This document shows positions 2-17,201 of a DNA stretch of 32,000 bases, in pieces. The position numbers and the translations under genes are program-made. The stretch lies in the NCBI GenBank assembly GCA_963692945.1, contig OY843585.1, positions 120,001 to 152,000 on the forward strand. Reading direction: 5' to 3'. The notes under the pieces were generated by a model, which was given only the letters and a program-made list of their open reading frames with translations, searched no databases and had not been told where the DNA came from. The stretch comes from Bdellovibrionales bacterium. GTDB taxonomy: Bacteria; Bdellovibrionota; Bdellovibrionia; Bdellovibrionales; UBA1609. The stretch's first letter is position 1; every line of letters starts with the position of its first letter.

Positions 2-1363
2 TTAACTCGGCAAAGAGTTTGGGGGGTTCCTTTTGTGGTTTTCTATTGTAAAAATTGCTCCACTCCTCTTTTAAATTCAAAAATCACTCATAACATTGCT
101 GATAAAATGGAGGAAAGCAAAGAAGGGATTGAATACTACTTCTCCAAAAAAGTTACTGAACTTCTCCCAAAAAATACAAAATGTGAATCTTGTAATGGAA
201 CAGATTTCAATAAAGGTTACGATATTCTAGATGTCTGGTTTGATAGTGGGATTCAACATGCTGTTTTCAAAAAAAATAAAAATTATAAATTACCATTTCC
301 TTCTGATTTATTTTTAGAAGGAAGTGACCAACATCGTGGATGGTTTCAAACAAGTCTCATTTCTTCTTTAGCCGTTGACGAAACCATCCCCTTTAAAACT
401 CTTTTAACTCATGGATTTGTTAATGATAAAGACGGGAAAAAAATGAGCAAAAGCAAAGGAAACGTTTTAGATCCTTTTGAAGTTATCAAGCAAAGTGGTG
501 CCGAAATTCTAAGACTATGGGTTTCCAGTGAAAACTACAACCATGACATCAATGCCGGGAAACACAGTTTAGAAAGAGTTACAGAAACCTATAGAAGATT
601 TAGAAATACTATTAGATTTTTACTTGGAAACTTGAATAACTTTGATTTTAATAAAGAGGAACAAAATTATAAAAATTTAACTTTAACAGATAAATGGACT
701 CTTTCCCAACTCAACCATTTAATTGCAAATTGCACAGAAGCTTTTGAGTGTTTTACTTTTTATAAGGCCTATCATCATTTGAATCAATTTTTTACAGTCA
801 CGCTTTCAGCCTTTTATTTAGATATCATCAAAGATCGCCTTTACACCTTTGGAGAAAATAGCCCAGAGAGGAAATCAGCTCAAACAGTCCTCTATCACCT
901 TTTAGATTGCCTTCTTCCTCTTATGGCTCCCCTATCCAGTTTCCTTTGTGAGGAAGCTTATGGATATTTTTCAGGGAAAAAAGAAGAGAGTGTTTTACTA
1001 GAAAACTTCCCTAAAATAAATGAGAACTGGAAAAACTCAGAAGTTGAAAATCTTTTCAAAAAATTATTTGTGTTGAGAGAAGACCTTAATAAACAAATAG
1101 AGTCTTTTAGAAAAGAGGGGAAATTAGGGTCTAACCTAGAAGCTTGTGCTGTCTTACAACTTCCAAAAAATTTCCTCGTCCCTCAGATGAAAGAACAAGA
1201 ACTTCTAGAATTTTTCTCAGTTTCAAATGTTAAAATGGTAGAAGGTAAAGAACCCTCAGTGAAAGCTCATTTAGCAAAAGGAGAAAAATGCTTGCGATGT
1301 TGGTTTTACAGTGAATCTCTCAACTCTGATAAAATATGTGCCAAATGCCGTAAAAATCTTTAA
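2..1363 (+). CDS. ileS: Isoleucine--tRNA ligase, C-terminal ~453 aa (5' end outside window)
   Basis: Frame 2 is open from nt 2 (LTRQRVWGVPF precedes the tracked GTG at 35). KMSKSKGN class-I aaRS signature. Cys-x2-Cys zinc knuckles (CKNC, CESC, CLRC, CAKC). Conserved ileS-lspA synteny. Confidence 0.95.
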   Translation, partial: LTRQRVWGVPFVVFYCKNCSTPLLNSKITHNIADKMEESKEGIEYYFSKKVTELLPKNTKCESCNGTDFNKGYDILDVWFDSGIQHAVFKKNKNYKLPFPSDLFLEGSDQHRGWFQTSLISSLAVDETIPFKTLLTHGFVNDKDGKKMSKSKGNVLDPFEVIKQSGAEILRLWVSSENYNHDINAGKHSLERVTETYRRFRNTIRFLLGNLNNFDFNKEEQNYKNLTLTDKWTLSQLNHLIANCTEAFECFTFYKAYHHLNQFFTVTLSAFYLDIIKDRLYTFGENSPERKSAQTVLYHLLDCLLPLMAPLSSFLCEEAYGYFSGKKEESVLLENFPKINENWKNSEVENLFKKLFVLREDLNKQIESFRKEGKLGSNLEACAVLQLPKNFLVPQMKEQELLEFFSVSNVKMVEGKEPSVKAHLAKGEKCLRCWFYSESLNSDKICAKCRKNL

Positions 1364-1393
1364 AATGTTAGAAATTTGGTATAAGGGTAAACT

Positions 1394-1888
1394 ATGAACT
1401 TTTATAAATACTTTTTAACAGCAACCATTTCTGGTTTCATAGTAAGCATTGACCAAGCGACAAAACTCTATGTTCATACTCAAATTAAGATGGGGGAACC
1501 TGTAACTGTTATCAAAGGTTTTTTTAATATCAACTATGTCCGTAATCCAGGAGGAATTTTTGGTCTATTTAGTGACAGTCCTGATTTCATCCGTTACATT
1601 CTCTTTCTTCTCTTTCCTCTTTTTTGTGTTTTCCTCATTTTTACTATGATTAGAGATACAAAAAATAAATTACAAATCACAGCTTTGGCTTTTATTTTAG
1701 GAGGTGCCGTAGGCAATTATATAGATCGTATTCGGTTTGGTTATGTTATTGATTTTATTGATTGGTATGTTAAGAGATTTCATTGGCCTACTTTTAACCT
1801 AGCCGACTCTTTTATTGTCCTAGGAGTTGCCATCCTTTCCGTTTTCTTTTTATTAGAAAAAAATCCTGAAAAAAATACAAAAAGTTAA
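1394..1888 (+). CDS. lspA: Lipoprotein signal peptidase (signal peptidase II)
   Basis: 164 aa, four hydrophobic segments, NYVRNPGGIFG and FNLADS motifs typical of LspA. Lies directly downstream of ileS. Confidence 0.9.
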   Translation: MNFYKYFLTATISGFIVSIDQATKLYVHTQIKMGEPVTVIKGFFNINYVRNPGGIFGLFSDSPDFIRYILFLLFPLFCVFLIFTMIRDTKNKLQITALAFILGGAVGNYIDRIRFGYVIDFIDWYVKRFHWPTFNLADSFIVLGVAILSVFFLLEKNPEKNTKS

Positions 1889-1891
1889 TTT

Positions 1892-2650
1892 ATGAATTCA
1901 AAAATGAAACCATCTCAAACTATACGTCTTAATAAATATCTTGCTCAATGGGGAGGTGTTTCCAGAAGAAAAGCAGATCATTGTATTGAAAAAGGTGAGG
2001 TTTTCATCAATGGAAATAAAGTAAAAAGTTTAGGCACTCTTATTGATCCCGAAAAAGATCAAATACGAATAAAAAATCGTATTATCCATAAACAAAATTT
2101 CTCACCAATTTATATTATGTTCAATAAACCTGAAAATGTATTAACTACAACCACTGATCCAAAAAATCGCACAACCGTTATGGATTTTATAAAAAAATAC
2201 AAACAGCGTATTTTTCCGGTTGGAAGATTAGACTGGAAATCCGAGGGCTTACTTCTCTTAACCAATGACGGAGATTTCGCACAAAAGATTCTACATCCTA
2301 AAAGTAAAATACCTAAAACCTATTTGGTAAAAATTCAAGGAAATCCCACTCCAGCTCATTTAAGAAAACTTGTAACGGGGGTCAGCACTCCTCTAGGAAA
2401 AATGAGAGCTCTTCATGCAGAAAAAGTTTTAAAAACAAGACAAAGTAATCAATGGATTAAAGTCATTATCTCTGAAGGAAAAAACCGACAAATCAGACAT
2501 ATGTTTGATAAATTGGGATACCGAATCGTAAAATTAAGGAGAGTCTCTATAGGAAGATTAAAATTAAACAAGTTGAAAAAAGGGACTTATGTATTCTTAA
2601 AAAAAACAGATGCTGAAAAAGCCTTTCTAACTTTAAAAGAACTCTATTAG
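1892..2650 (+). CDS. rluB: Pseudouridine synthase, RsuA/RluB family (N-terminal S4 domain)
   Basis: S4-like RLNKYLAQWGGVSRRKAD, catalytic PVGRLDWKSEGLLLLTNDG motif, KNRQIRHMF motif. Confidence 0.85.
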   Translation: MNSKMKPSQTIRLNKYLAQWGGVSRRKADHCIEKGEVFINGNKVKSLGTLIDPEKDQIRIKNRIIHKQNFSPIYIMFNKPENVLTTTTDPKNRTTVMDFIKKYKQRIFPVGRLDWKSEGLLLLTNDGDFAQKILHPKSKIPKTYLVKIQGNPTPAHLRKLVTGVSTPLGKMRALHAEKVLKTRQSNQWIKVIISEGKNRQIRHMFDKLGYRIVKLRRVSIGRLKLNKLKKGTYVFLKKTDAEKAFLTLKELY

Positions 2651-3111
2651 TTTGATTTGGCTCGCTTTTTTTTCATGGCTCTTTCTATTTGTCTGTCTGC
2701 TGTTTTCTTTTTTAAAGTGGCTCTCTTATCTCTATGTGATTTCCCAACCCCCAAAGCAATCTCTACTTTTGCTTTTCCTTTTTTAAAATAAATTCTTAAT
2801 GGAATGCAAGCCATTTTCTTTTGTTGAATCAAGCCTCTTATTTTCTCTATTTCTTTTTTATGGAGTAAAAGTTTCCTCAGTCTTTCTGGCTCATGCCCAC
2901 CTTGCAAAGAGCCTTCATAGGGACTAATGTGAGCTTTTTGCAAAAAAGCTTCATCACCAACAAAAGCAACATAGGCATCCTTTAAATGACACCGACCGTC
3001 CCTTAAAGGCTTAAGTTCACTTCCTTGAAGCACGATTCCTGCTTCAAACTTCTCTTTCAATTCATAGAGAAATCTTGCTTTTTTATTAAAAACAACTTCT
3101 TTAACCGACAT
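2647..3111 (-). CDS. smpB: SsrA-binding protein SmpB
   Basis: 154 aa. NKKARFLYEL, GIVLQGSELK and LLLHKKEI motifs, basic C-terminal tail. 4-nt convergent overlap with rluB. Confidence 0.93.
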   Translation of the reverse strand: MSVKEVVFNKKARFLYELKEKFEAGIVLQGSELKPLRDGRCHLKDAYVAFVGDEAFLQKAHISPYEGSLQGGHEPERLRKLLLHKKEIEKIRGLIQQKKMACIPLRIYFKKGKAKVEIALGVGKSHRDKRATLKKKTADRQIERAMKKKRAKSN

Positions 3112-3152
3112 ACTTTAAAAATAAAACGAGTCTCTTTTAAGAGCAAGATTCT

Positions 3153-3370
3153 TTTACAAAACTCTAATGTTACTCTACTTATTTTCTGACCTTTCATCGT
3201 AAGAGGGACACTCTTCAAGTTCAGAAAACAAGGAGGGGTATTCTTAGAGAAAAACTGATGTTTTTCGCATATTAGTTTAGGAGTTTTCATCGTAAAAGGG
3301 GACACTCTTCAAATCTCGTTAAAATAAGAGTTATGTAACAGTCTTATGTTTGAACTAGAGTTTTTGAAAA
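3153..3370 (+). repeat. Composite copy (two cores) of a nested-inverted-repeat element
   Basis: Left TIR TTTACAAAACTCTAATGTTA (3153-3172), right TIR TGAACTAGAGTTTTTGAAAA (3351-3370). Two conserved cores at 3192-3219 and 3284-3313. 3306-3331 is identical (26/26) to 7826-7851. Confidence 0.8.
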
Positions 3371-3954
3371 GCTTTGGGTTTAAAACCCTGCCTATTAACA
3401 ATACTGGAACTGCTTCCTGTCGCTCTTATCACAAACAAACCCTCTTTCTCAGCTCTTCTGTCAGAAGATTGGTTGGCTTTTAAATACGCAACGGCTCCAT
3501 AAACTTTTTTACCTTTAAATTCTGGCATAAAATCCGTAACTCTATTTAATTTCTTAATGAAATAATTCAACTCTTTAATATACAAAGTTGTTTTCACTTC
3601 TACAACAACGAGCTCCTCCCCGTTGAGAGCCAAAATATCAAATTCAAATTGTTGTTCCCCATGTTTTTTCACTATATTTGTTGCAGTCCGATCAACTTTG
3701 ATACCTTTTTGTTTTAGAAGTTTCACTAAATCTCCTTCAACTAAAGTTTCCATCAACTTACCCCAGTGACCATTGAATTTTAGATCCGTCTCTCTTATTT
3801 GTTTGGCAGTTGCTTTTAGGCTAGCTCGGAGCTCTTTAATATCTTCTGCTGCTTTTTTATCGCGCTCTTCTTGTGCTTTTTTTTGCTCTTTAAAAAGTTG
3901 CCAGATTTCTGCAAAATAAGATTTAGCTTCTAAAACAGTAGATTTATTACTCAT
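3355..3954 (-). CDS. Coiled-coil + PD-(D/E)XK nuclease-fold protein (DUF3782-like), function unknown
   Basis: 199 aa. N-terminal Lys/Glu-rich helix, then HWGK...E104-F-D106-IL...VVV-E119-V-K121, matching the D...(D/E)xK restriction-endonuclease-like motif and the layout I recall for DUF3782 proteins. AGGAGA Shine-Dalgarno (SD) site 5 nt upstream of the ATG at 3954. The stop codon lies inside the repeat TIR. Confidence 0.75.
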   Translation of the reverse strand: MSNKSTVLEAKSYFAEIWQLFKEQKKAQEERDKKAAEDIKELRASLKATAKQIRETDLKFNGHWGKLMETLVEGDLVKLLKQKGIKVDRTATNIVKKHGEQQFEFDILALNGEELVVVEVKTTLYIKELNYFIKKLNRVTDFMPEFKGKKVYGAVAYLKANQSSDRRAEKEGLFVIRATGSSSSIVNRQGFKPKAFQKL

Positions 3955-4025
3955 TATTTCTCCTTTTTTTAGTTTACCATAAGTTATATGCGAAAACCAT
4001 GCCCATTTTATAAAGAAATATTAAA

Positions 4026-4170
4026 AACAAAACTCTCGTTCATTTAACAAAACTCTAGTTCATTTCTAATACTCTTTTCTTTTTAGGAGATTTTCGTCGT
4101 AGGAGAGATACTCCTCAAACACCTAAAAAGAAAAGAGTTCTTACTTATAGTGAACTAGAGTTTTGTAAAA
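4026..4170 (+). repeat. Nested-inverted-repeat element (archetype copy) with a tandemly duplicated left end
   Basis: Tandem 20-mers AACAAAACTCT(C/A)GTTCATTT at 4026-4045 and 4046-4065. TIR 4043-4062 versus 4151-4170. Perfect 17-bp inner stem 4071-4087 / 4122-4138. Core 4091-4120 with hairpin AGGAG-AGATA-CTCCT (4101-4115). Confidence 0.85.
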
Positions 4171-4180
4171 GCGTCTCTCA

Positions 4181-4342
4181 TGTGGAGGGCTTGTAGATTT
4201 TATTTTTTATCTATTTATGAAAGAAGAAGATATTATTAACTTAGCTAAAGCAAAAAAGCCCTCTGTGGAGGGCTTGTGGATTCTATTTTTTAATTTGATC
4301 TATTTATAAAATGGGAATCAATTATTTATAAAATGGGAATCA
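4181..4342 (+). repeat. Duplicated ~40-bp module plus tandem 20-mer
   Basis: TGTGGAGGGCTTGT(A/G)GATT(T/C)TATTTTTTA...TCTATTTAT occurs at 4181-4218 and 4264-4307. TATTTATAAAATGGGAATCA occurs at 4301-4320 and 4323-4342 (22-bp period). Confidence 0.75.
4251..4275 (-). terminator. Rho-independent terminator for the 4340..5293 gene
   Basis: On the minus strand, AAGCCCTC-CACA-GAGGGCTT followed by TTTTG: 8-bp GC-rich stem, 4-nt loop, T-run. About 65 nt downstream of the stop at 4340. Confidence 0.7.
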
Positions 4343-5293
4343 CCAGCTAGAGTCTGAAAACAATTCAGCTGTTCTTTTCATCACAGCATCTCTCTTCTTT
4401 TTGATTTCCACTAATGCATTCCAATAACTTTCACAAAACTTCCCTTCTAACTTTATAAAATCTTTACAAATCTTTGCTTTGTGAGCTCTCTCATTGTCTA
4501 AATCTCTAACCTCTGCTACAAAGTTTTTCATATTATTACACATCTCTATATATATATCATACAACCCCTTATTCCAATATGGGTTAGAGTTTTGACTACA
4601 ATGGGTAGAGACCTCTTCTAATATATTTAAACTATAAATAGCACCTTGATAATGTCTAATAACAGGAAGCAAAGGAACACCAGTCCCCATACCCTCTTTA
4701 TAACCCGGTGAAGAGCGTTCTAATTGAGCATGATGATCTACAACTTGCAAAAAATACCTGTCAAAATACCCTGATGATATCAAATAAAAAGAAGCCAGTT
4801 CAAATAAATGGTCTTTTTCTAAAAGAGCATAAAGAACTGTAGAACCATCGGTTGAAGTAGCATTAGGATAGTTAGGGATGGATTTAATAAGATCTATAAC
4901 TTCTTTATAAGAGGCTATAGCTGAATCTATGATTTCACTATACCTCACTGTGTCTTCAATATCTCTAAAAGTCCCGTCGGTTGTTATATACCTAGCCATC
5001 ATATAAGCGGGGTAAACCCCTTTTTGATCTTTCCCTTTTATTAAATACTTAAAGGCTTCGTCTTTTTTGCCCCTTAATAACAAACATTTGGCTTTCATAA
5101 CTAAGAGGAGGTGATCTTTAGGTTGATCTTGTAGCTGTCTATCTACATCATTTTCATCTTCACAATCTATTATTAAAGATACACTAGAAAAACCAAAGAT
5201 TAAAAAAAACAGCAAGAAAAGAGTTTTAAAAAAATTCATACTAAAAGTTTTTTTAAAACCTTCCCGATAAACATCCTTGTCCCATAAAACCAT
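4340..5293 (-). CDS. Hypothetical signal-anchored or secreted protein, no recognisable family
   Basis: 317 aa. AAGGAGGT SD 3 nt upstream of the ATG at 5293. Hydrophobic segment FFKTLFLLFFLIFGFSSVSLII after an 18-aa N-terminus. Followed by a terminator. Confidence 0.7.
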   Translation of the reverse strand: MVLWDKDVYREGFKKTFSMNFFKTLFLLFFLIFGFSSVSLIIDCEDENDVDRQLQDQPKDHLLLVMKAKCLLLRGKKDEAFKYLIKGKDQKGVYPAYMMARYITTDGTFRDIEDTVRYSEIIDSAIASYKEVIDLIKSIPNYPNATSTDGSTVLYALLEKDHLFELASFYLISSGYFDRYFLQVVDHHAQLERSSPGYKEGMGTGVPLLPVIRHYQGAIYSLNILEEVSTHCSQNSNPYWNKGLYDIYIEMCNNMKNFVAEVRDLDNERAHKAKICKDFIKLEGKFCESYWNALVEIKKKRDAVMKRTAELFSDSSW

Positions 5294-5604
5294 ATAACCT
5301 CCTTGTATAAGTGTCTCAAAATGAGACTCATTTATATTAAATGATTTTCAAAAAAACACAATGAAAAGCTTCTTCATAAAGGAACTTTCTTTAATTTTAC
5401 AAAAGCAAGTGTTTAAAAACTGAACGGTTTTTGTTCTTTTTCCTTTTTAAAAGGATAAAAATCACTTTTTAAATGAGATTTAAATCCCATTCAATAAAAT
5501 TTAAAAAATCCATTCCAGATAAATTGAAATAAATAATTTATAAATAGAAATATAATAAATTTTTTAACTCCTTTTCCTATTTTTGACGATATAATAATAG
5601 GGCT

Positions 5605-6636
5605 ATGTATTTACAAAAAATTTTAAAGATCTTTGTATTTCTCATGATAAGTCCTTTACCTATAAGTTCAACAGCAAACTGTAATGATCGCAATATATGT
5701 AGACCAGAGACTCCAGCTTCAAGGAAGGGTCAAACGGGGCAGAAAAAGAATGTACCACTTGGTGGTGATAGTCATGATGGTAATCAAAATATAGTTGGAA
5801 CTGACTTTTCTGTAGATCATTATCGCATGGGCCGCTACAATCCACATAAAAAGACAGCCTCACAAACTAATATTATTCCTAATGTTGATGGTAATAATCT
5901 TAAAAAAAAATCTAAGATAGAGCAGATGTTATCCTTTCTTGATAAAGGTACTAGTTATAATCATCATTACGAAGTCTTAGGATATAAAAAATTTATTAAT
6001 ACATACTGTAACGGTTTTACGGAAAATTTAAATGAGATAAAAAAGAATCTAGATTATGAATACAGAGATGGTGAAGGACAAGCAGAAGGTATAGCTACAA
6101 ATCAATTAAAAGAGCTAATAATTGCTTGTAAAGATAAATTGAGCAAATTTGATTCTGGTATAGAAACAATCGAATCAGATCATAAAAAATATGAATCTAT
6201 TAAAGAATTAAATGATCGATGGAAAGAAATAAAAAAATTAAAAAATCAATGCCAAAACAGTTATAATCTGAACAAATCACTACTTAAAAATCGTGAAGAA
6301 GATACATTTAACCATTTTGAAACAGAGATACGCATACGTTTTGAAAATTGTGACATGAATGAATATATAGAAATTTATAAAGAAAAAATCAAAAAACTTA
6401 AAAAGCAAGAAGAAGCCAGATGTAACACCGACATCAACGAACCGGAGGGTTGTATAAAAGAACTCAATGATTTTCTCAAGCCTCTTAAGGGAGAAGGCGA
6501 CACTCTTTTATACAAATGCGGTCACTATCCTGAAACAAAAAAATCTTGTTGCAGTAATCTTGATCAAGAAGACTGTGAACATAAAAAATTTTTTAATACT
6601 TACTTAAAAAAATATAAAAAATCCTCATCAATGTAA
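5605..6636 (+). CDS. Cys-rich secreted protein, N-terminal part (frame 1), ends just after a poly-A frameshift site
   Basis: Signal-peptide-like MYLQKILKIFVFLMISPLPISSTA. Many spaced Cys residues and Lys/Glu-rich helices. Stop at 6634-6636 lies just after the A7 (6606-6612) and A6 (6616-6621) runs. Confidence 0.65.
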   Translation: MYLQKILKIFVFLMISPLPISSTANCNDRNICRPETPASRKGQTGQKKNVPLGGDSHDGNQNIVGTDFSVDHYRMGRYNPHKKTASQTNIIPNVDGNNLKKKSKIEQMLSFLDKGTSYNHHYEVLGYKKFINTYCNGFTENLNEIKKNLDYEYRDGEGQAEGIATNQLKELIIACKDKLSKFDSGIETIESDHKKYESIKELNDRWKEIKKLKNQCQNSYNLNKSLLKNREEDTFNHFETEIRIRFENCDMNEYIEIYKEKIKKLKKQEEARCNTDINEPEGCIKELNDFLKPLKGEGDTLLYKCGHYPETKKSCCSNLDQEDCEHKKFFNTYLKKYKKSSSM

Positions 6637-7768
6637 AAGTAAAGAGCTTTTAGAAAGTAACATATATAATAAAAGAATAGATATCTGTGAAGCTAATGTA
6701 AAACAATGTCATAACACTTGTAATACTGCTCTAGAACAATTCCGTGACAAATTTAAAAGGTGTTTTTATGTTTCCAGTTTTAAAGATGCCGTTAATGAAA
6801 ACTCTAAATGTGAGAAGCACATTGTGAACATCTCTATAAAGTATAAAGAGATTCTAACACAAATTAAAGATAGATTTTTTGATAGCAGTTCTACTAAAAA
6901 ATTGTATGAACCATCAACGGATGAATATTTATTAATTACAAAAGGAGCTTCAATAGATCATTTTCCAAATTGCGAAACAATAATAAACAAAACCATAGAA
7001 AACAACGAGGATAAAATAAAAGCAAGAGCCAAGTTTTATGCAGAACAAGCTTGTTTGGCTAAAAACTCTAAAGACCCTAATAAACCATCGTCAACAGCAA
7101 GTTTAGCAGGTGGTAGCTCAGGTAACAGCCAAGAGGACTCTTCTTCGTATAATGGGTTACCCCCCCCCAATTCTCAACCCCCTTCTTATTCTCAAGGAGG
7201 AACTGGATATAATGTAAGAACGACTTCTAACCCATCAGGAAGTTCTCCATCATCAAGAAATCCTTACAAATCCAATGGCGACCCATACGATTTAGAAAAA
7301 TTCCTTAAAGAAAGAAACAAAATGGCCAAAGACGACGAAACCCCTGATGGTCTTGAAGACACCGACAAAAAAACAAAAGACTTAGTGCCTGGGATAAATG
7401 ATGATAACAAGTTGACGGAAACAGATGAAGAATCAAAAAACAATCTTGCCAGTTCAGCCCTTCAGAAATCTACATCAGAAACACCCTCCGAAACAATGAG
7501 CACATGGCAAACTGTGAAAACAAGATTTTTTGGCTCAAGTTCAAAATCCAAAAAAACAAGTCGTGGTTCTTATTTACCAAAAGGTTTTGGGAAACGAAAC
7601 CTAGCTTCCAATCAAAAACCAGTGACACTAACTCAAACCTATCGTTCTAGAGATTCAGGAACAAAATCACCTATTGGTAGTGCCAATCAAAATATTTTTG
7701 AAATGGTTTCCAACTCCATGAATCATTTCTGTGTTACAAAAATCAAAAACTGTTACACCAGCTTTTAA
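6608..7768 (+). CDS. Continuation of the Cys-rich protein in frame 2 (no credible independent start); Ser/Pro/Gly-rich disordered middle
   Basis: Frame 2 is open from 6608. It has no ATG and only a GTG at 6824 without an SD. The Cys-rich pattern continues (HQCKSK, DICEANVKQCHNTCN, KRCF, SKCEKH). Removing one A in either run fuses 5605..7768 into 720 codons. Confidence 0.6.
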   Translation, partial: KNIKNPHQCKSKELLESNIYNKRIDICEANVKQCHNTCNTALEQFRDKFKRCFYVSSFKDAVNENSKCEKHIVNISIKYKEILTQIKDRFFDSSSTKKLYEPSTDEYLLITKGASIDHFPNCETIINKTIENNEDKIKARAKFYAEQACLAKNSKDPNKPSSTASLAGGSSGNSQEDSSSYNGLPPPNSQPPSYSQGGTGYNVRTTSNPSGSSPSSRNPYKSNGDPYDLEKFLKERNKMAKDDETPDGLEDTDKKTKDLVPGINDDNKLTETDEESKNNLASSALQKSTSETPSETMSTWQTVKTRFFGSSSKSKKTSRGSYLPKGFGKRNLASNQKPVTLTQTYRSRDSGTKSPIGSANQNIFEMVSNSMNHFCVTKIKNCYTSF

Positions 7769-7889
7769 CAAAACTCTAGTGTGTGAATTTTTATTTTCAC
7801 GAGCTTTTCATCGCAAGAGAGACGTTCTTCAAATCTCGTTAAAATAAGAGTAAGAAAATATCTAAGTAACTGAACTAGAGTTTTTTTAA
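7764..7889 (+). repeat. Nested-inverted-repeat element between convergent genes
   Basis: TIRs TTTAACAAAACTCTAGTGTG (7764-7783) and TGAACTAGAGTTTTTTTAA (7871-7889). Inner stem 7791-7803 / 7835-7847 (one mismatch). Core 7805-7833. Confidence 0.85.
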
Positions 7890-8678
7890 CTTTTCAAACT
7901 TTTGGTAAAGAGATAAAAACTGATTAGAAGAAAGTTCCTCAGCTCTTGTATTAAAACTCCAATTTTTATCTGTAAAAAATCTTTCCCACTCTATCAGAAA
8001 ATCTTTAGGAAGCTGTTTAATTAATTTTTTTCTTCTTTGAGCAAAACAAGATTTAATAAATTGTAAAAAACTCTTTTTATCCACAATAGAAACCAATTTC
8101 TTAGGTTTAAAACTTAACACCACCCCGTCCACTTCAGGAACAGGATAAAAATTATTTTTACCAACATGGATCATCCATTCTATATCCCAAAAAATTTGAG
8201 ACAAAACAGAAAGAAGTCCATAACTTTTTGTATGAGTTTTAGCTAAAATACGCTCGGACACTTCTTTTTGAACCATTAAGATCATCTGTGCTGGAGATTC
8301 TTTAAGAAGACTCATTTCTAAAATAAGAGAACCTGCAATTTGATAAGGTAAATTACCAAATAAAGTAAAGGGGGATGGGATTTGATTCCAATTGAATTTT
8401 AAAGCATCACTACAAAAAACAGAAAAACCTTTTTCCTTCCAATAAGAATCTAATTTTTGATCTCTTTCAATAAGAAAAATCTGATCTTTCTCAGAGTTAA
8501 AAAAATGTGTTAAAGCACCTAGACCAGGACCCACCTCCACCCAAGGAGGAGAACTGCTTTTCACCTTGTTCACTATCTTCAAAACTATCTCTTCATTTAT
8601 TAAAAAATTTTGTCCTAATTTTTTATTAGGTTTTATATCTAATTCTTTCAATTTGATTTTTAATTTTTGTAAATTCAT
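7875..8678 (-). CDS. rsmA: 16S rRNA (adenine1518/1519-N6)-dimethyltransferase
   Basis: KKLGQNFL motif, SAM-binding VEVGPGLGALT, NLPYQI motif. 267 aa. Confidence 0.92.
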   Translation of the reverse strand: MNLQKLKIKLKELDIKPNKKLGQNFLINEEIVLKIVNKVKSSSPPWVEVGPGLGALTHFFNSEKDQIFLIERDQKLDSYWKEKGFSVFCSDALKFNWNQIPSPFTLFGNLPYQIAGSLILEMSLLKESPAQMILMVQKEVSERILAKTHTKSYGLLSVLSQIFWDIEWMIHVGKNNFYPVPEVDGVVLSFKPKKLVSIVDKKSFLQFIKSCFAQRRKKLIKQLPKDFLIEWERFFTDKNWSFNTRAEELSSNQFLSLYQKFEKLKKL

Positions 8679-8713
8679 AATTTAAAAATAATTTTTCCTT
8701 ATGGTAAATACAA

Positions 8714-9748
8714 TTAAGAGGAGAAAAAATCTTTTTCCGTATGATGAGGAACACAAGGGATGTCTAAACTTGAAGATTGCCCTTTTAAAAAATAATGAAG
8801 TCCTGTAAAAGCAACCATGGCCGCATTGTCTGTGCAATAAACTTTCTCTGGGTAAAAACATTCCACTTGAGCTGACTTAGCCCATTTTTCTATTTTAGAT
8901 CTTAAACAAGTGTTAGCACTTACACCTCCACCAATTAAAATACGGTCACTTGGATATTTATTAAAAGCTCCCTTAAGTTTTTCTAGCAAATGATCTACAA
9001 TAACTTCTTGATAACTGGCACAAATTTCTGGCAAGTTCTCTTGAATCCATTCTTTTGATTTCTTAGATAACAAGCGGCGACCTGCACTTTTTATTCCAGA
9101 AAAGCTAAAATCTAAATCTTCTGTTTTAATTTTTGAAAATAAAGTGTTTTTTTGAAAATTTAATTTTTGAGAGTAAGAATCTATGTGAGGACCTCCAGGC
9201 CAAGGAAATCCTAACAATTTAGCAAATTTATCTAGAGCTTCCCCAGCAGCATCATCTAATGTTGAACCTAATAAAATAGAATCCCCCACACCTTTCACAT
9301 AAAATAAGGAACTATGCCCCCCACTAACCACCAAAGACAAAGAAGGAAATTTAAGAGGTTTAAAAGTGTGTTGAGATTTTTGACTCCAAAGATAAGAGCT
9401 AAATAAGTGGGCTTCAATATGATTAACTCCTATAAGAGGTTTATCCCACACCATACTAAGCGTTTTAGCTGTCACACAACCCACTAAAAGAGCTCCTAAA
9501 AGACCCGGCCGATTTGTAACTCCTATAACATCAATTTGTTCTTTTGGAACAACCTTTAAAGCCTCTTCTATGATAGGGAGAAGATAATAACCATGATTAC
9601 GACTGGCTAACTCAGGAACAATGCCACCATATTTTTGATGAATGTCATCTTGACTTTGATTTTTTAAAAATAAAACCTCTGCTTTATCTGTAACCAAAGA
9701 AACAGAAGTGTCATCACAACTTGTTTCTATACCTAAACATATAGGCAT
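8714..9748 (-). CDS. tsaD: tRNA N6-adenosine threonylcarbamoyltransferase
   Basis: LGIETSCDDTSV N-terminus, NHIEAHL metal-binding motif, GGVSAN motif. 344 aa. Confidence 0.93.
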   Translation of the reverse strand: MPICLGIETSCDDTSVSLVTDKAEVLFLKNQSQDDIHQKYGGIVPELASRNHGYYLLPIIEEALKVVPKEQIDVIGVTNRPGLLGALLVGCVTAKTLSMVWDKPLIGVNHIEAHLFSSYLWSQKSQHTFKPLKFPSLSLVVSGGHSSLFYVKGVGDSILLGSTLDDAAGEALDKFAKLLGFPWPGGPHIDSYSQKLNFQKNTLFSKIKTEDLDFSFSGIKSAGRRLLSKKSKEWIQENLPEICASYQEVIVDHLLEKLKGAFNKYPSDRILIGGGVSANTCLRSKIEKWAKSAQVECFYPEKVYCTDNAAMVAFTGLHYFLKGQSSSLDIPCVPHHTEKDFFSS

Positions 9749-9749
9749 C

Positions 9750-10478
9750 TTATTGTTTTTTTAATCTTTGTTTAGCTTTTTCAACCCAAGAAGATGTAGG
9801 GTAGGTTTTTATAATTTCTTTATAAAAAACTTGAGACTCTGGTAACATTTTTAAATACCTAAAAGATTCTCCCATATAATAAGTAGCCTCTATAATATAG
9901 ATTCCTTTAGGATTTTTATTCCGATAATCTTGAAACTTAGTGATAGCACTTTGCCAAGACTTTTCAGAGTACAATTTTTTAGCCTCAATAAAGGATTGAG
10001 AAGATGTATCCTTTTTTTGAGAACCTTCTTTATCTGACTTGTTCTGGATTTTTTCTTCTAACTTTATATCTTTCACAGGTTTTTCTTGGGAATCTTGATT
10101 TTTTAAAACAGTTTCTGGATCCTCATCACTAAAGTGGATGGCATCATCAGATATTTCTTCTGTCAAAATTTGCACTTTAGAATTCACTTTATCCCTATTG
10201 ACTGAAGATTTATTAGCAATAAGACGATCTATTTTCTTTTCTAAATTAGAAATCTTAACTCGTAAGACCTTATAACTTTCAACAACATTTTGCATCTTTT
10301 CTGAAATAAAAGCGAAATCATCCTTATCTAAATTAGCAACACTTCTTAAAGTATCCACAATGTCTTGCTTAGAAGAATAGCGATTCTTTTTTATAACACT
10401 ATCATAATGAGAAGTTTTTTTAGTTGTAGAGCAATTAACACAAAAAAAGAAAATCATTAAAAAAGTAAATCTTTTCAT
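9750..10478 (-). CDS. YbgF/CpoB-like protein (signal peptide, coiled coil, C-terminal TPR-like domain)
   Basis: N-terminal hydrophobic signal with Cys, central coiled coil and acidic linker. The C-terminal ~80 aa (AKKLYSEKSWQSAITKFQDY...YYMGESF...KTYPTSSWVEKAKQRL) resembles the YbgF TPR domain. Lies downstream of pal. Confidence 0.55.
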   Translation of the reverse strand: MKRFTFLMIFFFCVNCSTTKKTSHYDSVIKKNRYSSKQDIVDTLRSVANLDKDDFAFISEKMQNVVESYKVLRVKISNLEKKIDRLIANKSSVNRDKVNSKVQILTEEISDDAIHFSDEDPETVLKNQDSQEKPVKDIKLEEKIQNKSDKEGSQKKDTSSQSFIEAKKLYSEKSWQSAITKFQDYRNKNPKGIYIIEATYYMGESFRYLKMLPESQVFYKEIIKTYPTSSWVEKAKQRLKKQ

Positions 10479-10535
10479 AACTTTTTACTCCAGTTAAGAG
10501 ATTACCATAAAAACCTATCCGAGTTAATGTTTCTG

Positions 10536-10844
10536 TCACAAACTGTAGTCTCCCTTTTTATATCTAGTCCATCTCGTTAAATCTTCCGATTTTTCGGCCA
10601 TTTCTAGACATTGATTAAAATAATCCTTAGCCTGTCCATACAACCTTTTATCAAAAGAATGACTACCTTTTCTATAGAAATAAACCGCTTTTCTATACAA
10701 TTTAGGGTTGTATTTATTAGCTTCAAATTTTTTAGCCGCCTGAAGAGCTGTACGAGCTAAACTGTATTCCTTAACAGGCGGAGTTCCTGCACAAGAAATC
10801 AAAAATAACATCCAAAATAAAGTACTTATATAATACTTAATCAT
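10536..10844 (-). CDS. Small lipoprotein (DUF4398-like helical protein)
   Basis: Lipobox LISC-AG. 102 aa. Its start overlaps the pal stop by 1 nt (TAATG), suggesting an operon. Confidence 0.6.
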   Translation of the reverse strand: MIKYYISTLFWMLFLISCAGTPPVKEYSLARTALQAAKKFEANKYNPKLYRKAVYFYRKGSHSFDKRLYGQAKDYFNQCLEMAEKSEDLTRWTRYKKGDYSL

Positions 10845-11362
10845 TATTTATATATAGGGACAAAATTGACTCGCCGATTTAATGAATTATCTGTCTGAGA
10901 AAGTGGCTTTTCTTCCCCGTAACTTATAATACTCATTCTATCTTTACGAATTCCTATAGATACAAGATAATTCAAAACCTTTTCGGCACGTCTTTGCCCT
11001 AAACCAATATTATAAGATTCAGAACCTAAAAAATCACAATGTCCTTCTAATTCTATCCTTTTCACTTGAGCATTGTTATCAAACCAACTTTTATTATCTT
11101 TTAAAATTTGTTTCGTTTTAGCAGATAAACCAGAAGAATCTAAATCAAAAAACACTGTACTTAAACCACTGATAGAACCTGAATCACTTCCACGACTCCC
11201 ACTATCTATATCTACATTACTGATATCCTCAGCACCCACTCCTTCTATGATATTTTTTCCTTGCATTTTATCTTTCATTTTTTGCAAATACGAACAAGAT
11301 ACTAAAGATATAAAACAAGTGGTTAAAATTAAACTTTTCAAAAAAAGAATTGCTCTCTGCAT
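10844..11362 (-). CDS. pal: Peptidoglycan-associated lipoprotein (OmpA-family C-terminal domain)
   Basis: I place the start at the ATG at 11362 (MQRAILF...LVSC lipobox) with a GAGGGGG SD upstream. The tracked 231-aa ORF is an upstream over-extension. OmpA-like motif ELEGHCDFLGSESYNIGLGQRRAEKV. Confidence 0.85.
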   Translation of the reverse strand: MQRAILFLKSLILTTCFISLVSCSYLQKMKDKMQGKNIIEGVGAEDISNVDIDSGSRGSDSGSISGLSTVFFDLDSSGLSAKTKQILKDNKSWFDNNAQVKRIELEGHCDFLGSESYNIGLGQRRAEKVLNYLVSIGIRKDRMSIISYGEEKPLSQTDNSLNRRVNFVPIYK

Positions 11363-11435
11363 TATACGGCCCCCTCTTGACGATACAAACGATTGACCCT
11401 TAAAATTATATAGAAAATAGGAATAAGGAGCAAGC

Positions 11436-11972
11436 ATGAAATTAGAAACAACAAAGTCCTGGATTGAAAAATGTCTGATAGAAAAAAACTCCAAAACCTC
11501 AAATCTCATTGTAACCCAAGCAGAACTTAAAGAAATCACAAATGAAGTGCTTTTAGATTTACGATCTATTTTTGAACACTTTGTAGAAGCTTTTAACGAT
11601 TTAAAGTCTTCTCTTTTACAAAATACTGAAAAACATAAATGGATTGACCAAAAAGAGGGGCTTCCTTTTTCCCTTTTACGATCTATTCATATCTACGATG
11701 TTGTTGATAAAGAAAATGGTTTTATGTTATTTCGGAAAGGGCATCGCCTTATTTTTACACCAGAAAAAGCAGGTCGCATTCATATTCAACTCATCAAAAA
11801 AGAAAATGAAACCATCATTAAACATATTGACACTTATATCAATGCTTTCCTCAACAACGTCATGTCTATTCAATGGACTCATGAAGATCACAAAGGGTTT
11901 GTGGATTTAAACACTCTGTCTCGCTATTATATGAAATGTTTTCTAACAGAAAGCGAAAAACTCACAAACTAG
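11436..11972 (+). CDS. Hypothetical cytoplasmic protein
   Basis: 178-aa ORF divergent from pal, GGAG-type SD (aataaGGAGcaagcATG). No family recognised. Confidence 0.55.
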   Translation: MKLETTKSWIEKCLIEKNSKTSNLIVTQAELKEITNEVLLDLRSIFEHFVEAFNDLKSSLLQNTEKHKWIDQKEGLPFSLLRSIHIYDVVDKENGFMLFRKGHRLIFTPEKAGRIHIQLIKKENETIIKHIDTYINAFLNNVMSIQWTHEDHKGFVDLNTLSRYYMKCFLTESEKLTN

Positions 11973-12002
11973 TCTGCATTTAAAAGATCCAATTTATAAG
12001 GG

Positions 12003-13082
12003 TTACAAATCCTTAACAGCTTCACTCAAAGCAACTTCTGGATCTTCTTCCTCTTCAAATTGAGAGCAGTACTCAACAAAAGCAGATATACTTTTATTCA
12101 CTTGAGGAGAGTCAAATAACTTTTCAAACTCTCCCGTATTATGTTTATAAGAACGATAAGATAATAAACGAGCATTGTTCAGTTTGATTTTTGAAAAATA
12201 ATGATACGAATTGGTTTTCAAGTTAGGCTGTATATTCCTAAGAAAACGATTCTGAATGTCTTTTAATCTTTTTTGTTTCATTTCGGGAGTAACTTTTCCT
12301 TTATTTTGTTTATACCATTCATCCAACTCCCCATACTCCGTTGTCATAAAAGAAGAAAAAAGTAATTCATCTTCCCACTCTCCGTGCATTTTTTGTAAGG
12401 TCTCAGATTCCGCCCCTTCTTTTTCTAAATAAAATAATTCTGCAGATCTTCGCCCAACAAACTCTGCAAACCTCTCATTAAAATCAATGTGATCTTTAAA
12501 AAATAAAACTGTGTGAGCCAATTCATGAAACACAGTCACTACAAAATCACTTTCATCATAAGACAACATAGAAGATAAAATAGAATCTTCAAACCAATTT
12601 AAAGTGCTGTAAGCTGCTACACCTCTAACTAAAGTGTCATACTTGTCTTTTGGAAAAAACTTTGCAGCCTCCTTGGCTTTTTCCTTATCAAAAAAACCTT
12701 TATACGGAGTGTAACCTATGAACGGAAAATTCCATTTATAAGCTTTTAATTCATAAGCATAAGCCACTCGTAAAAGATAACTCACATAAGCTTCATCCAA
12801 CTTCACATAAGTGGAATAAATGTCCTCATCTATATCTAATTTTAATTTTTCAAGAGCAAATTTTTTAATTTGCGAAACCATTTTGAGTTTTTTTCGTTCA
12901 CTCTCAGTCAATTCATATTTTTCTAGAGCTTTTTCAATAGAAACCCTTTGGTTTAACAATTTGACCTGACCAAGACTGACATGTGCAAGATACTGCATAT
13001 CTTTGCAACCTGTAAGAAAAAGAAAGGAAAAAATTAGGATTTGTATTTTTTTATTTTTCTGTTTCACAAATAGGAACTCCAT
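12003..13082 (-). CDS. Putative zinc aminopeptidase lipoprotein (predicted-aminopeptidase family, HExxH)
   Basis: Lipobox FLTGC. VFHELAHTV metalloprotease motif. Overall resembles the 'predicted aminopeptidase' family (PF10023, from memory). Confidence 0.65.
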   Translation of the reverse strand: MEFLFVKQKNKKIQILIFSFLFLTGCKDMQYLAHVSLGQVKLLNQRVSIEKALEKYELTESERKKLKMVSQIKKFALEKLKLDIDEDIYSTYVKLDEAYVSYLLRVAYAYELKAYKWNFPFIGYTPYKGFFDKEKAKEAAKFFPKDKYDTLVRGVAAYSTLNWFEDSILSSMLSYDESDFVVTVFHELAHTVLFFKDHIDFNERFAEFVGRRSAELFYLEKEGAESETLQKMHGEWEDELLFSSFMTTEYGELDEWYKQNKGKVTPEMKQKRLKDIQNRFLRNIQPNLKTNSYHYFSKIKLNNARLLSYRSYKHNTGEFEKLFDSPQVNKSISAFVEYCSQFEEEEDPEVALSEAVKDL

Positions 13083-13136
13083 CTACAAGTTTTTAAAAGT
13101 ATCATTTCATCTTTCAAAAATCAAAAAATACAAAAT

Positions 13137-13538
13137 CTATCGTTTAGAAAATTGAGTGCTTTTTCGGGCTTTATGACGTCCGTATTTCTTTCGTTCCACC
13201 ATTCTTGAATCTCTTGTTAAAAATTGATTCTTTTTAAGAGTAGCACGATAAGTTTCATCTACTTCCAGAAGAGCTCTTGCTAAAGCATGACGAATAGCTT
13301 CAGATTGACCTGTAAAACCACCACCTTTAACAGTTGCGAAAACATCAAAAGATTTTTGCACCCCTAAAACTTCTAAGGGACTTAGAACCGATTGATATTG
13401 TTTCTGTTTTACAAAATAATCTTTAAGAGATTGCTTACGGTTAACTGTAAAAGAACCTGTTCCAGACTTTAAAAACACCCGAGCTGAACTTGTTTTTCTG
13501 CGACCCGTGCCATAAAAGAAAGGTGATTTTTTTGTCAT
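13137..13538 (-). CDS. rpsI: 30S ribosomal protein S9
   Basis: GTGRRKTSSARV and C-terminal KKYGRHKARKSTQFSKR. Confidence 0.97.
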   Translation of the reverse strand: MTKKSPFFYGTGRRKTSSARVFLKSGTGSFTVNRKQSLKDYFVKQKQYQSVLSPLEVLGVQKSFDVFATVKGGGFTGQSEAIRHALARALLEVDETYRATLKKNQFLTRDSRMVERKKYGRHKARKSTQFSKR

Positions 13539-16493: not shown

Positions 16494-17201
16494 TTACTTT
16501 TTCTTCTCTTTAGCAGCCTTCTTTTTAGCTGCTTTCTCTTTAGCAGCCTTTTCTTTAGCTGCCTTCTTTTTAGCTGCCTCGGCTTTTTTCTGAGCAGCCT
16601 TTCTTTCTTTCCGTCGTTCTTTTAAAATCTTCTTTGCTATATGAGATGGGGATGCTGTTTGCCCACGACCCTCATTGAGACGAAGATGATTTATAAGTTT
16701 TTCACTAAGTTTTATTTTAGATGTTTTAATATCTAAGAAAATAACATCTGCTTCTGGTTTTAGAACTCCTCTAGCATGAGATATGGAGTTTTCTACAATG
16801 TAAAGAGCATTCGCTTGAAAAAGAGGAGATTTTTTTTTGTTCTTTAAAACAGGAAGGGCTTCTTTCACCACTTCTGCCAATACATCTATAAAAGGCTTAT
16901 AGGTGTTAATTTCTGTTTCCAAAGGAGAGAGTAAAGAGCTTCGCAGACCATCTGTATCAGGTCTCATAAATAAAATTTTAAGACCAACCTTTAACTTGGA
17001 AAGAGCCTCATCTGGGTCAATAGCATCACTTTCTTTGTTTTCAGATTGATTTGAAGTCGTTTTCTGTGTTTTTTGGATGTAAGAATTTACAATTTTTCGC
17101 ATTTGCTCATAATCTTTAATTTTTAGATTTTCATAAGTGTAGTTGCCCCATGAGACAGAACATAAAAACACAAAAAATAAGACCAAAAAATTCTTCAACA
17201 T
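16494..17201 (-). CDS. Secreted protein with Lys/Ala-rich repetitive C-terminal tail
   Basis: Signal peptide MLKNFLVLFFVFLCSVSWG. Tail KKAEAAKKKAAKEKAAKEKAAKKKAAKEKKK is encoded by imperfect 15-nt tandem repeats (about 16500-16600). Confidence 0.65.
   Translation of the reverse strand: MLKNFLVLFFVFLCSVSWGNYTYENLKIKDYEQMRKIVNSYIQKTQKTTSNQSENKESDAIDPDEALSKLKVGLKILFMRPDTDGLRSSLLSPLETEINTYKPFIDVLAEVVKEALPVLKNKKKSPLFQANALYIVENSISHARGVLKPEADVIFLDIKTSKIKLSEKLINHLRLNEGRGQTASPSHIAKKILKERRKERKAAQKKAEAAKKKAAKEKAAKEKAAKKKAAKEKKK

Follow-up and report, generated by a model that had tools for sequence, protein, structure and literature searches.

Repeats around a nuclease gene raise the question whether they are the ends of a mobile unit, the substrate of the enzyme, or neither. 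Such a gene was analyzed in a window of 32,000 nucleotides (nt) of contig OY843585.1 (positions 120,001 to 152,000, assembly GCA_963692945.1) from a Bdellovibrionales bacterium. The gene is an open reading frame (ORF) on the minus strand (window positions 3355..3954), and an earlier reading of the sequence without database searches (the original prediction) had described it as a coiled-coil PD-(D/E)XK gene enclosed by a 24-nt inverted repeat, i.e., as a candidate mobile or defence cassette. Our answer, which we consider fairly likely as a whole, is that an accessory nuclease gene lies in a 4.7-kb island bounded by palindromic elements and that the right arm of the 24-nt pair is a candidate sigma-54-type promoter of this gene. 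The left arm is taken to be a partial look-alike of this promoter, which lacks the -24 box and lies in the variable left arm of a palindromic element. The host has a small, low-GC genome of the Bdellovibrionales type (about 32% GC in the window), and the spacer between ksgA and smpB, which houses the island, is otherwise conserved.

The claimed ORF was found to be present and intact with a length of 199 amino acids (aa). Its strong Shine-Dalgarno site was also confirmed, since AAAGGAGAAATA is placed immediately 5' of the ATG within the leader (3955..3976, minus strand). The Pfam model Hjc (PF01870) matches residues 73-153 with 33.8 bits (gathering cutoff 21.1) and is also matched by 35 of 36 relatives. 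Aligning 36 members of the family showed no variation at E104, D106, E119 and K121, and E73 was retained in at least 90% of the sequences. By the register of the Pfam alignment, E73, D106, E119 and K121 would be the counterpart of the catalytic tetrad of Hjc. In the AlphaFold model, which was computed with the family alignment, residues 3-82 form a single long helix, and an alpha/beta domain comes after it (mean predicted local distance difference test score, 87.7). When this model was compared to the PDB using Foldseek, the top 14 matches and most of the lower ones were PD-(D/E)XK nucleases with a probability of 1.00. The best matches were AF1548, NucS/EndoMS, VC1899 and the nuclease domains of Can2, Card1 and Cdn1. 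Hence, both the proposed architecture of an N-terminal coiled coil with a C-terminal nuclease domain and the proposed PD-(D/E)XK fold with the motif E104/D106/E119-x-K121 stand. The ORF is read as a functional, intact accessory gene for a predicted stand-alone endonuclease of the Hjc-like/DUF8196 PD-(D/E)XK family, with the same fair likelihood as the reading of which it is part, and the protein is probably active.

The known structures share with this protein the PD-(D/E)XK core with an E in helix 1, a D and E-x-K; this applies to Hjc, the C-terminal domain of NucS/EndoMS, AF1548 and Can2/Card1/Cdn1. The present nuclease differs in being bacterial and multicopy and in having an N-terminal coiled coil of about 80 residues and extra C-terminal strands. 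It also differs from enzymes of the Can2/Card1/Cdn1 type in having neither a CARF nor any other sensor domain. The NCBIfam equivalog model of Hjc (NF040854) gave 24.1 bits, which is far below its cutoff of 70, and the domain is therefore called Hjc-like without assuming an Hjc ortholog. Archaeal Hjc is a single-domain protein of about 130-140 aa with one copy per genome, whereas the protein studied here has 199 aa including a coiled coil and is represented by four paralogs in its genome. Using PADLOC, the protein matched solely the PD-(D/E)XK modules of CARF-fused effectors; the full gene set of a known anti-phage system was not matched, and neither a CARF domain nor partner genes were found. 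Searches of PHROGs and of PDB sequences with the protein gave nothing useful.

Concerning the family name, the original prediction had pointed to DUF3782, and this part stands only with regard to architecture. Pfam DUF3782 groups the coiled-coil stalks of a prokaryotic PD-(D/E)XK endonuclease family (Hartmann et al., PMC4786415), to which the present architecture fits. Its model (PF12644) gave no match to the protein at E ≤ 1 and matched 2 of the 36 relatives weakly (best E = 0.0028), and the name was rejected for this reason in favor of Hjc-like/DUF8196. The model PDDEXK_10 (PF07788, DUF1626) did not match the protein at E ≤ 1 either and matched 4 of the 36 relatives weakly. The architecture of the related DUF1626 was described by Knizewski et al. 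(PMC1913061), who reported that its catalytic lysine is often replaced by Thr, whereas the lysine is kept here. DUF3782 and DUF1626 proteins resemble the present nuclease in their N-terminal coiled-coil stalk, their C-terminal PD-(D/E)XK domain, an unassigned function and a patchy distribution suggestive of horizontal transfer. For both names, the literature search returned only papers on fold classification and coiled coils. The precomputed annotation of the exact protein consists of Hjc and DUF8196 (PF26618); DUF8196 covers most homologs, is marked '(weak)' for them, and is absent from the local hmmscan output. No mention of DUF8196 was found in the literature search, and membership in it says nothing about function.

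The nuclease family is large, patchy, multicopy, often arranged in tandem, and uncharacterized, although it already has Pfam entries. A word-indexed search found more than 2278 homologs, and 4076 clusters (50% identity, E ≤ 1e-3) were obtained when the search was made exhaustively with a profile, 525 of which had E ≤ 1e-30. In the host, four paralogs with 77-100% identity are encoded on the same contig of 1,561,448 bp, which agrees with the multicopy character expected by the original prediction; the differences between them are chiefly indels in the coiled coil. When the GTDB species representatives were scanned with a profile, at least 475 loci were obtained, and the best 80 were analyzed as homolog loci (designated by L numbers). 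These 80 are mostly from metagenome-assembled genomes (MAGs) labelled as Spirochaetia, Bdellovibrionales, Arenicellales, Gammaproteobacteria, Poriferihabitaceae, Nitrospirales and Thiosymbion; many belong to host-associated assemblies of long reads, and several loci were found per genome. In 81 loci, 116 family copies were counted, with tandem arrays of up to seven copies (L031). Same-strand arrays were also observed in L059 (four copies), in L030, L037 and L009 (three copies each) and at other loci, and the spacers within the arrays compared are 90-100% identical. What varies between tandem copies, and likewise between the four paralogs here, is mainly how many heptad-like ETDRQ(M/L)(Q/K) repeats the coiled coil contains. 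All-against-all clustering of the ORFs from the 81 loci yielded no conserved partner gene, only the family itself and alternative-frame shadows, in agreement with the predicted single-gene status. A census of 146 flanking proteins with Pfam and PADLOC was heterogeneous and included a few IS110/rve transposases, AAA_14/DUF4143 ATPases, a few defence-type matches and many housekeeping genes.

The unit which differs between genomes was delineated by comparison with three related Bdellovibrionales loci (L082, L083 and L084). Their TsaD proteins are 84%, 82% and 76% identical to that of the window, and the gene order of the window flanks is retained, namely tsaD-ksgA-smpB followed by rluB-lspA-ileS on the other strand. 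The gap between ksgA and smpB is 73-133 nt in these relatives. In blastn, window positions 5-3147 and 7881-11971 align to the relatives at about 80-83%, while 3148-7880 is unmatched. Based on the adjacency of ksgA and smpB in all three relatives and on these alignment breaks, the variable unit is a lineage-specific island of 4.7 kb between smpB and ksgA (3148..7885, right end approximate). A cassette as in the original prediction would be present or absent as a unit of 743 bp, but the relatives lack the whole island and do not break at 3258 and 4000. On the smpB side, homology stops at 3146-3147, and it resumes at cttgctcttaaaagagactcg directly outside the outer terminal repeat of the first palindromic element. 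On the ksgA side, homology extends into the fourth element's outer repeat. The ends of the island are one left and one right terminal repeat, which is the configuration of a single large composite element. No homolog of the nuclease was found in the 63 kb of the relatives.

The island contains the nuclease gene, four palindromic elements, a terminator and three orphan ORFs without a Pfam family (4340..5293, minus; 5605..6636, plus; 6824..7768, plus). The two plus-strand ORFs encode low-complexity proteins, one of which is rich in Ser, Pro and Asn and one of which contains Cys; they are possibly secreted effector-like cargo. An intrinsic-terminator-like hairpin was predicted at 4256..4275 (minus strand) and ends the upstream gene 4340..5293, which makes the nuclease gene a transcription unit of its own. 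Two copies of TGTGGAGGGCTTGTRGATTYTATTTTTTA (4181-4209 and 4264-4292) are 93% identical, the second being part of this hairpin, and look like a duplicated terminator module between the third element and the upstream gene.

All four elements of the window, each of about 130 nt, are situated inside the island (nhmmer E ≤ 4e-27), and the setting amid structured repeats that had been proposed is thereby confirmed as accessory DNA dense with palindromic elements. Element A (3148..3262, E = 4e-27) provides with its outer terminal repeat the left boundary of the island. Element B (3240..3376, E = 8e-29) reaches with its right terminal repeat (3351-3372) into the 3' end of the nuclease gene. Element X (4040..4176) is the best-paired copy, with a predicted RNA fold of -49.7 kcal/mol (z = -7.8). 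The fourth element (7758..7896), detected by nhmmer and a terminal-repeat search, forms the right boundary. All four are given in plus-strand orientation. An orphan duplicate of the left terminal repeat, AAACAAAACTCTCGTTCA, was found in a search for direct and inverted repeats at 4024..4042 (plus), 69 nt upstream of the nuclease ATG. The terminal inverted repeats have the consensus GCTTTTAACAAAACTCTAG and the arms are variable, whereas the asymmetric core TTTTCATCGTAAGAGGGACACTCTTCAA is conserved in all elements in constant orientation. The elements fold into long hairpins.

Being small, non-coding and multicopy and having terminal inverted repeats, the elements are similar to miniature inverted-repeat transposable elements (MITEs). 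They resemble MITEs, Correia elements, Rickettsia palindromic elements and the repetitive extragenic palindromes (REP) with their mosaic elements (BIME) in a length of about 130 nt, lack of coding capacity, terminal inverted repeats of 17-19 nt and long imperfect hairpins. A further likeness is their position at gene ends, where they even provide stop codons. The enclosure of a 4.7-kb cargo segment by two copies is similar to a MITE-bounded composite insertion. Rfam gave no match for the elements at gathering thresholds, and at E ≤ 1 only chance hairpin types (plant miRNA precursors, leader peptides) were returned; neither a tRNA nor a tmRNA was found beside smpB.

The terminal repeats have contributed to gene ends. 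The last codons of the nuclease gene, GCT TTT CAA AAA CTC TAG (AFQKL*), are the right terminal repeat of element B. For ksgA (7875..8678, minus), the end KKL* including the stop codon falls within the right repeat of the fourth element, and the ORF 6824..7768 stops at a TAA within the left repeat of the same element. All four paralogs end with F(Q/T)KL, whereas the homologs of other genomes end with KAFS. The right repeat of element X would encode AFTKL* on the minus strand, which is the exact ending of paralog P0003. From the shared ending and this match, the stop contributed by the repeat is older than the duplications that led to four copies. The shared ending does not imply a complete element downstream of every paralog.

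The 24-nt inverted pair, from which the idea of a cassette had been derived, exists as described. Positions 3258..3281 (plus) and 3977..4000 (minus) agree at 19 of 24 positions, including the exact 11-mer TTTTCGCATAT; the sequence of the pair is ATGKTTTTCGCATAT, and a degenerate search found the motif nowhere else in the 32-kb window. The match is real and only marginally beyond chance. When the two flanks (3112-3354 and 3955-4339) were shuffled 1000 times with their dinucleotide content retained, an inverted 24-mer match of at least 19/24 was obtained in 1.9% of the trials (p ≈ 0.02), and the flanks of the gene are built from repeats and are not random sequence. A stronger inverted pair encloses the gene farther out (3146-3169 and 4153-4176, 20/24) and consists of terminal repeats of the elements; a tighter one was found at 3351-3364 and 4029-4042 (13/14). 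The left arm is inside the left half of element B and has no -24 GG. The right arm overlaps a candidate sigma-54-type -24/-12 promoter, GGGCATGGTTTTCGCA, at 3989..4004 (minus) with GG-N10-GC spacing. A decayed element arm was also considered for the right arm and ruled out, as the element model does not match 3955-4023.

Sigma-54 promoters are marked by GG and GC doublets 10 nt apart (TGGCAC-N5-TTGCA) a short fixed distance upstream. Among the homolog loci, TGGCAC-N5-TTGCATAT occurs 37-65 nt upstream of the ATG in L015, L036, L048, L058 and L066, and also in L011/L029. The variants of the Bdellovibrionales homologs at this distance are TGGCACGGATTTTGCA, TGGCACAGATTTTGCA, AGGCATGGATTTTGCA and TGGCACGGAATTTGCT, a GC-rich pair of Spirochaetia homologs has GGTATGGTTTCCGCA, and degenerate versions were found in five more loci. 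Scoring with the canonical consensus (at least 10 of 12 positions) gave 7 upstream hits in the sense orientation versus 1 antisense and 0 downstream hits. An inverted downstream partner was not found for any of the motif-bearing homologs, and the motif occurs as a pair in 0 of the 80 homolog loci. Since the right arm coincides with a candidate promoter motif which homologs carry without the partner arm, and since flanking inverted repeats are rare among the homolog loci, our conclusion is that no mobile cassette ends at the 24-nt repeats. Conservation of the motif suggests that the right arm is the gene's own sigma-54-type promoter, which shares the fair likelihood of the overall reading as does the look-alike status of the left arm, and the nuclease gene is probably under sigma-54 control.

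Two further repeats were observed next to such promoters. The 16-mer TTTATAAAATGGG[A/C]AT is present exactly three times in the window (3999-4014, minus; 4303-4318, plus; 4325-4340, plus), with 0.35 copies expected at ≤ 2 mismatches; one copy abuts the nuclease promoter and two tandem copies overlap the stop of ORF 4340..5293. Upstream of the homologs in L048 (2590-2730), L036, L058 and L066, a palindrome AAAACCC(T)TTTGGGTTT is placed just 5' of the sigma-54-like motif, in L048 inside a tandem 61-nt repeat. It could be a putative activator binding site and has no equivalent in the window.

A consistent, conditional picture can be drawn from these data. The island may have arisen as a composite, MITE-bounded insertion mobilized in trans or, alternatively, by repeated insertions of elements into tolerated accessory DNA. 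The nuclease gene would be silent unless its sigma-54 promoter is triggered by an enhancer-binding activator. The coiled coil would then oligomerize two or more nuclease domains, and the site formed by E73, D106, E119 and K121 would cleave DNA in a Mg2+-dependent manner. Compared to a housekeeping resolvase, a nuclease of the conflict type (defence-like or selfish) with potential toxicity would fit this mode of action better.

Several points weigh against this interpretation. Neither an evident target-site duplication at the junctions of the island nor a cognate transposase for island or elements was found, in which the elements differ from MITEs. The evidence for the sigma-54 assignment is the conservation of the motif; the 15-mer promoter pattern was derived partly from sequences which were then scored with it, the motif of the window departs from the consensus (GGGCAT / TCGCA), and the window contains neither rpoN nor an activator gene. 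The flank tests cover the homolog loci of other genomes, and the other three paralog loci of this genome are outside the comparison. As to the role of the family, relatives of the DUF1626 type are listed as 'unknown' (PMC3424549). Moreover, three of the four elements adjoin the nuclease gene, which is more than expected under a pure bystander model.

This proximity leads to the alternative which survives best, although we regard it as unlikely: the Hjc-like enzyme would cut the cruciform or hairpin extruded by the palindromes of about 130 nt and thereby drive their spread or the recombination and duplication of adjacent DNA including its own gene. It would be a functional analogue of the REP-associated tyrosine transposases (RAYTs) and their REP repeats with a PD-(D/E)XK enzyme. 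Three of the four elements are within 100 nt of the nuclease gene and all four are in the same island, the terminal repeat forms the last codons of the gene and the four paralogs keep this ending, element X is a near-perfect long hairpin (z = -7.8), and the best Pfam match is a family of Holliday-junction resolvases. On the other hand, co-location is also expected if both gene and elements accumulate in tolerated accessory DNA, and no strand-transfer chemistry is known for stand-alone PD-(D/E)XK nucleases. The co-occurrence of gene family and repeat elements across genomes which the original prediction had suggested was not found. The element model (nhmmer) had 0 matches in the 81 homolog loci and none in the three syntenic regions of 21 kb (63 kb) from related genomes, and two scans of JGI metagenomes for the terminal-repeat pair or the degenerate core found nothing. 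Strongly structured hairpins showed no significant enrichment beside genes of the family (all loci, Mann-Whitney p = 0.14; Bdellovibrionota subset, p = 0.08 and Fisher p = 0.16). A lineage-specific link between nuclease and elements is possible because three of the four elements touch the gene and the terminal repeat forms its last codons.

A looser partnership of nuclease and repeats is left as a possibility by a different MITE-like family beside four homolog loci in two other Bdellovibrionales genomes. This second family (about 115-135 nt, palindromic, TTCAGGAGAGAA...GGATTTAAAAGGCTCGGACATGC...TTCTCTCCTGAA) is unrelated to the elements of the window. Its copies in the two MAGs are a few hundred nt from nuclease homologs (L036 2690-2802; L066 2504-2617; L048 3724-3860 and ~3999-4113; L058 ~3908 and ~5517). 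In another Bdellovibrionales MAG, a perfect palindrome of 46+46 nt with a 3-nt loop (L010 5115-5209, z about -20) is about 1.5 kb from a homolog and not adjacent to it. In its general form, the idea would make the coiled-coil nuclease family the trans-acting partner of genome-specific, cruciform-forming MITE-like elements, driving their spread, the formation of islands and its own duplication; we consider this generalization a long shot. The likeness to RAYT/REP (REPtron) and TnsA/Tn7, which the original prediction had invoked, is one of idea only, i.e., a nuclease-type gene flanked by repeats on which its product possibly acts. RAYTs are HUH/Y1 transposases with a fold unlike PD-(D/E)XK, and TnsA acts inside the multi-gene Tn7 machinery together with TnsB; neither architecture nor gene context of these systems was found at the present locus.

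A second alternative, pairing of the two arms at the RNA level, is very unlikely. The leader (3986-4000) would pair with the 3' untranslated region (3258-3272) and stabilize the mRNA or limit translation of a toxic nuclease. Minimum free energy folds of three hypothetical transcripts all contain this pairing, and the duplex energy of -14.7 kcal/mol is reached by 0.25% of random 24-mers of the window. However, a transcript starting about 12 nt downstream of the -12 box leaves most of the right arm untranscribed, so that pairing would need a start upstream of the predicted one. Furthermore, the pairing is absent from homologs.

Least probable of all is a discrete selfish or mobile cassette at 3258-4000 with 24-nt inverted ends: the uniqueness of the 19/24 match in the window, its frequency of about 2% in shuffles and an insertion-like distant homolog (L002/L017) speak for it, but the right arm is accounted for by the promoter motif, the left arm is part of element B, the polymorphism concerns the whole island, inverted repeats with E < 1e-3 flank only five other loci among the 80 homolog loci, none with the present sequence, and homology between dispersed paralogs in other genomes is asymmetric without symmetric ends, as it comprises the ORF with 160-290 nt upstream and stops 0-27 nt from the stop codon. 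The five loci are L002/L017 (same place), two tandem arrays, whose repeated spacers contain hairpins, and L006. Other Bdellovibrionales loci were searched for inverted repeats between the 5' unit boundary and the 3' coding end, which gave only matches of 7-11 nt, except for 20 nt at 85% in L006 (E = 0.64). In L002 (3692-5014, Spirochaetia MAG), the distant homolog is part of a segment of about 1.2 kb with two insertion signatures. The segment is enclosed by a 39-nt inverted repeat (82%) and also by a direct repeat of 69 nt (85.5%), which is a duplicate of the 3' end of the response-regulator gene upstream; it has the appearance of an insertion by which this gene end was restored.

Two features elsewhere in the window were noted in passing. 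A second difference from the three relatives was found at 11972-13137, where about 1.1 kb between rpsI and a gene for a 178-aa protein contain an ORF (12003..13082, minus) for a putative aminopeptidase (PF10023, E = 2e-74). The relatives have only about 120 nt at this site, and no palindromic element is present there in the window. At 16503-16586, a 15-nt periodic repeat (CTTCTYTTTAGCWGC, about five copies) is contained in ORF 16494..17201 (minus), presumably encoding an alanine/lysine-rich low-complexity stretch.

Returning to the accessory nuclease gene in its palindrome-bounded island, the comparison with the empty sites of the relatives means that the gene arrived on the 4.7-kb island, and the conserved sigma-54-type motif would imply that the gene is expressed only upon action of a dedicated activator. 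In three genes, the 3' end has been altered by the terminal repeat of the elements, and this includes all four nuclease paralogs. The family itself spans thousands of clusters and many phyla and is conspicuous in MAGs of symbionts of sponges and other invertebrates. If the nuclease does not act on the palindromes, the locus is a repeat-rich insertion with an accessory nuclease of an ordinary kind. If it does, this would be a new kind of repeat-mobilizing system, a PD-(D/E)XK counterpart of RAYT/REP, and a trans-acting role of the family would explain its multiple copies and tandem arrays in symbionts of sponges and other invertebrates, whose genomes are rich in repeats.

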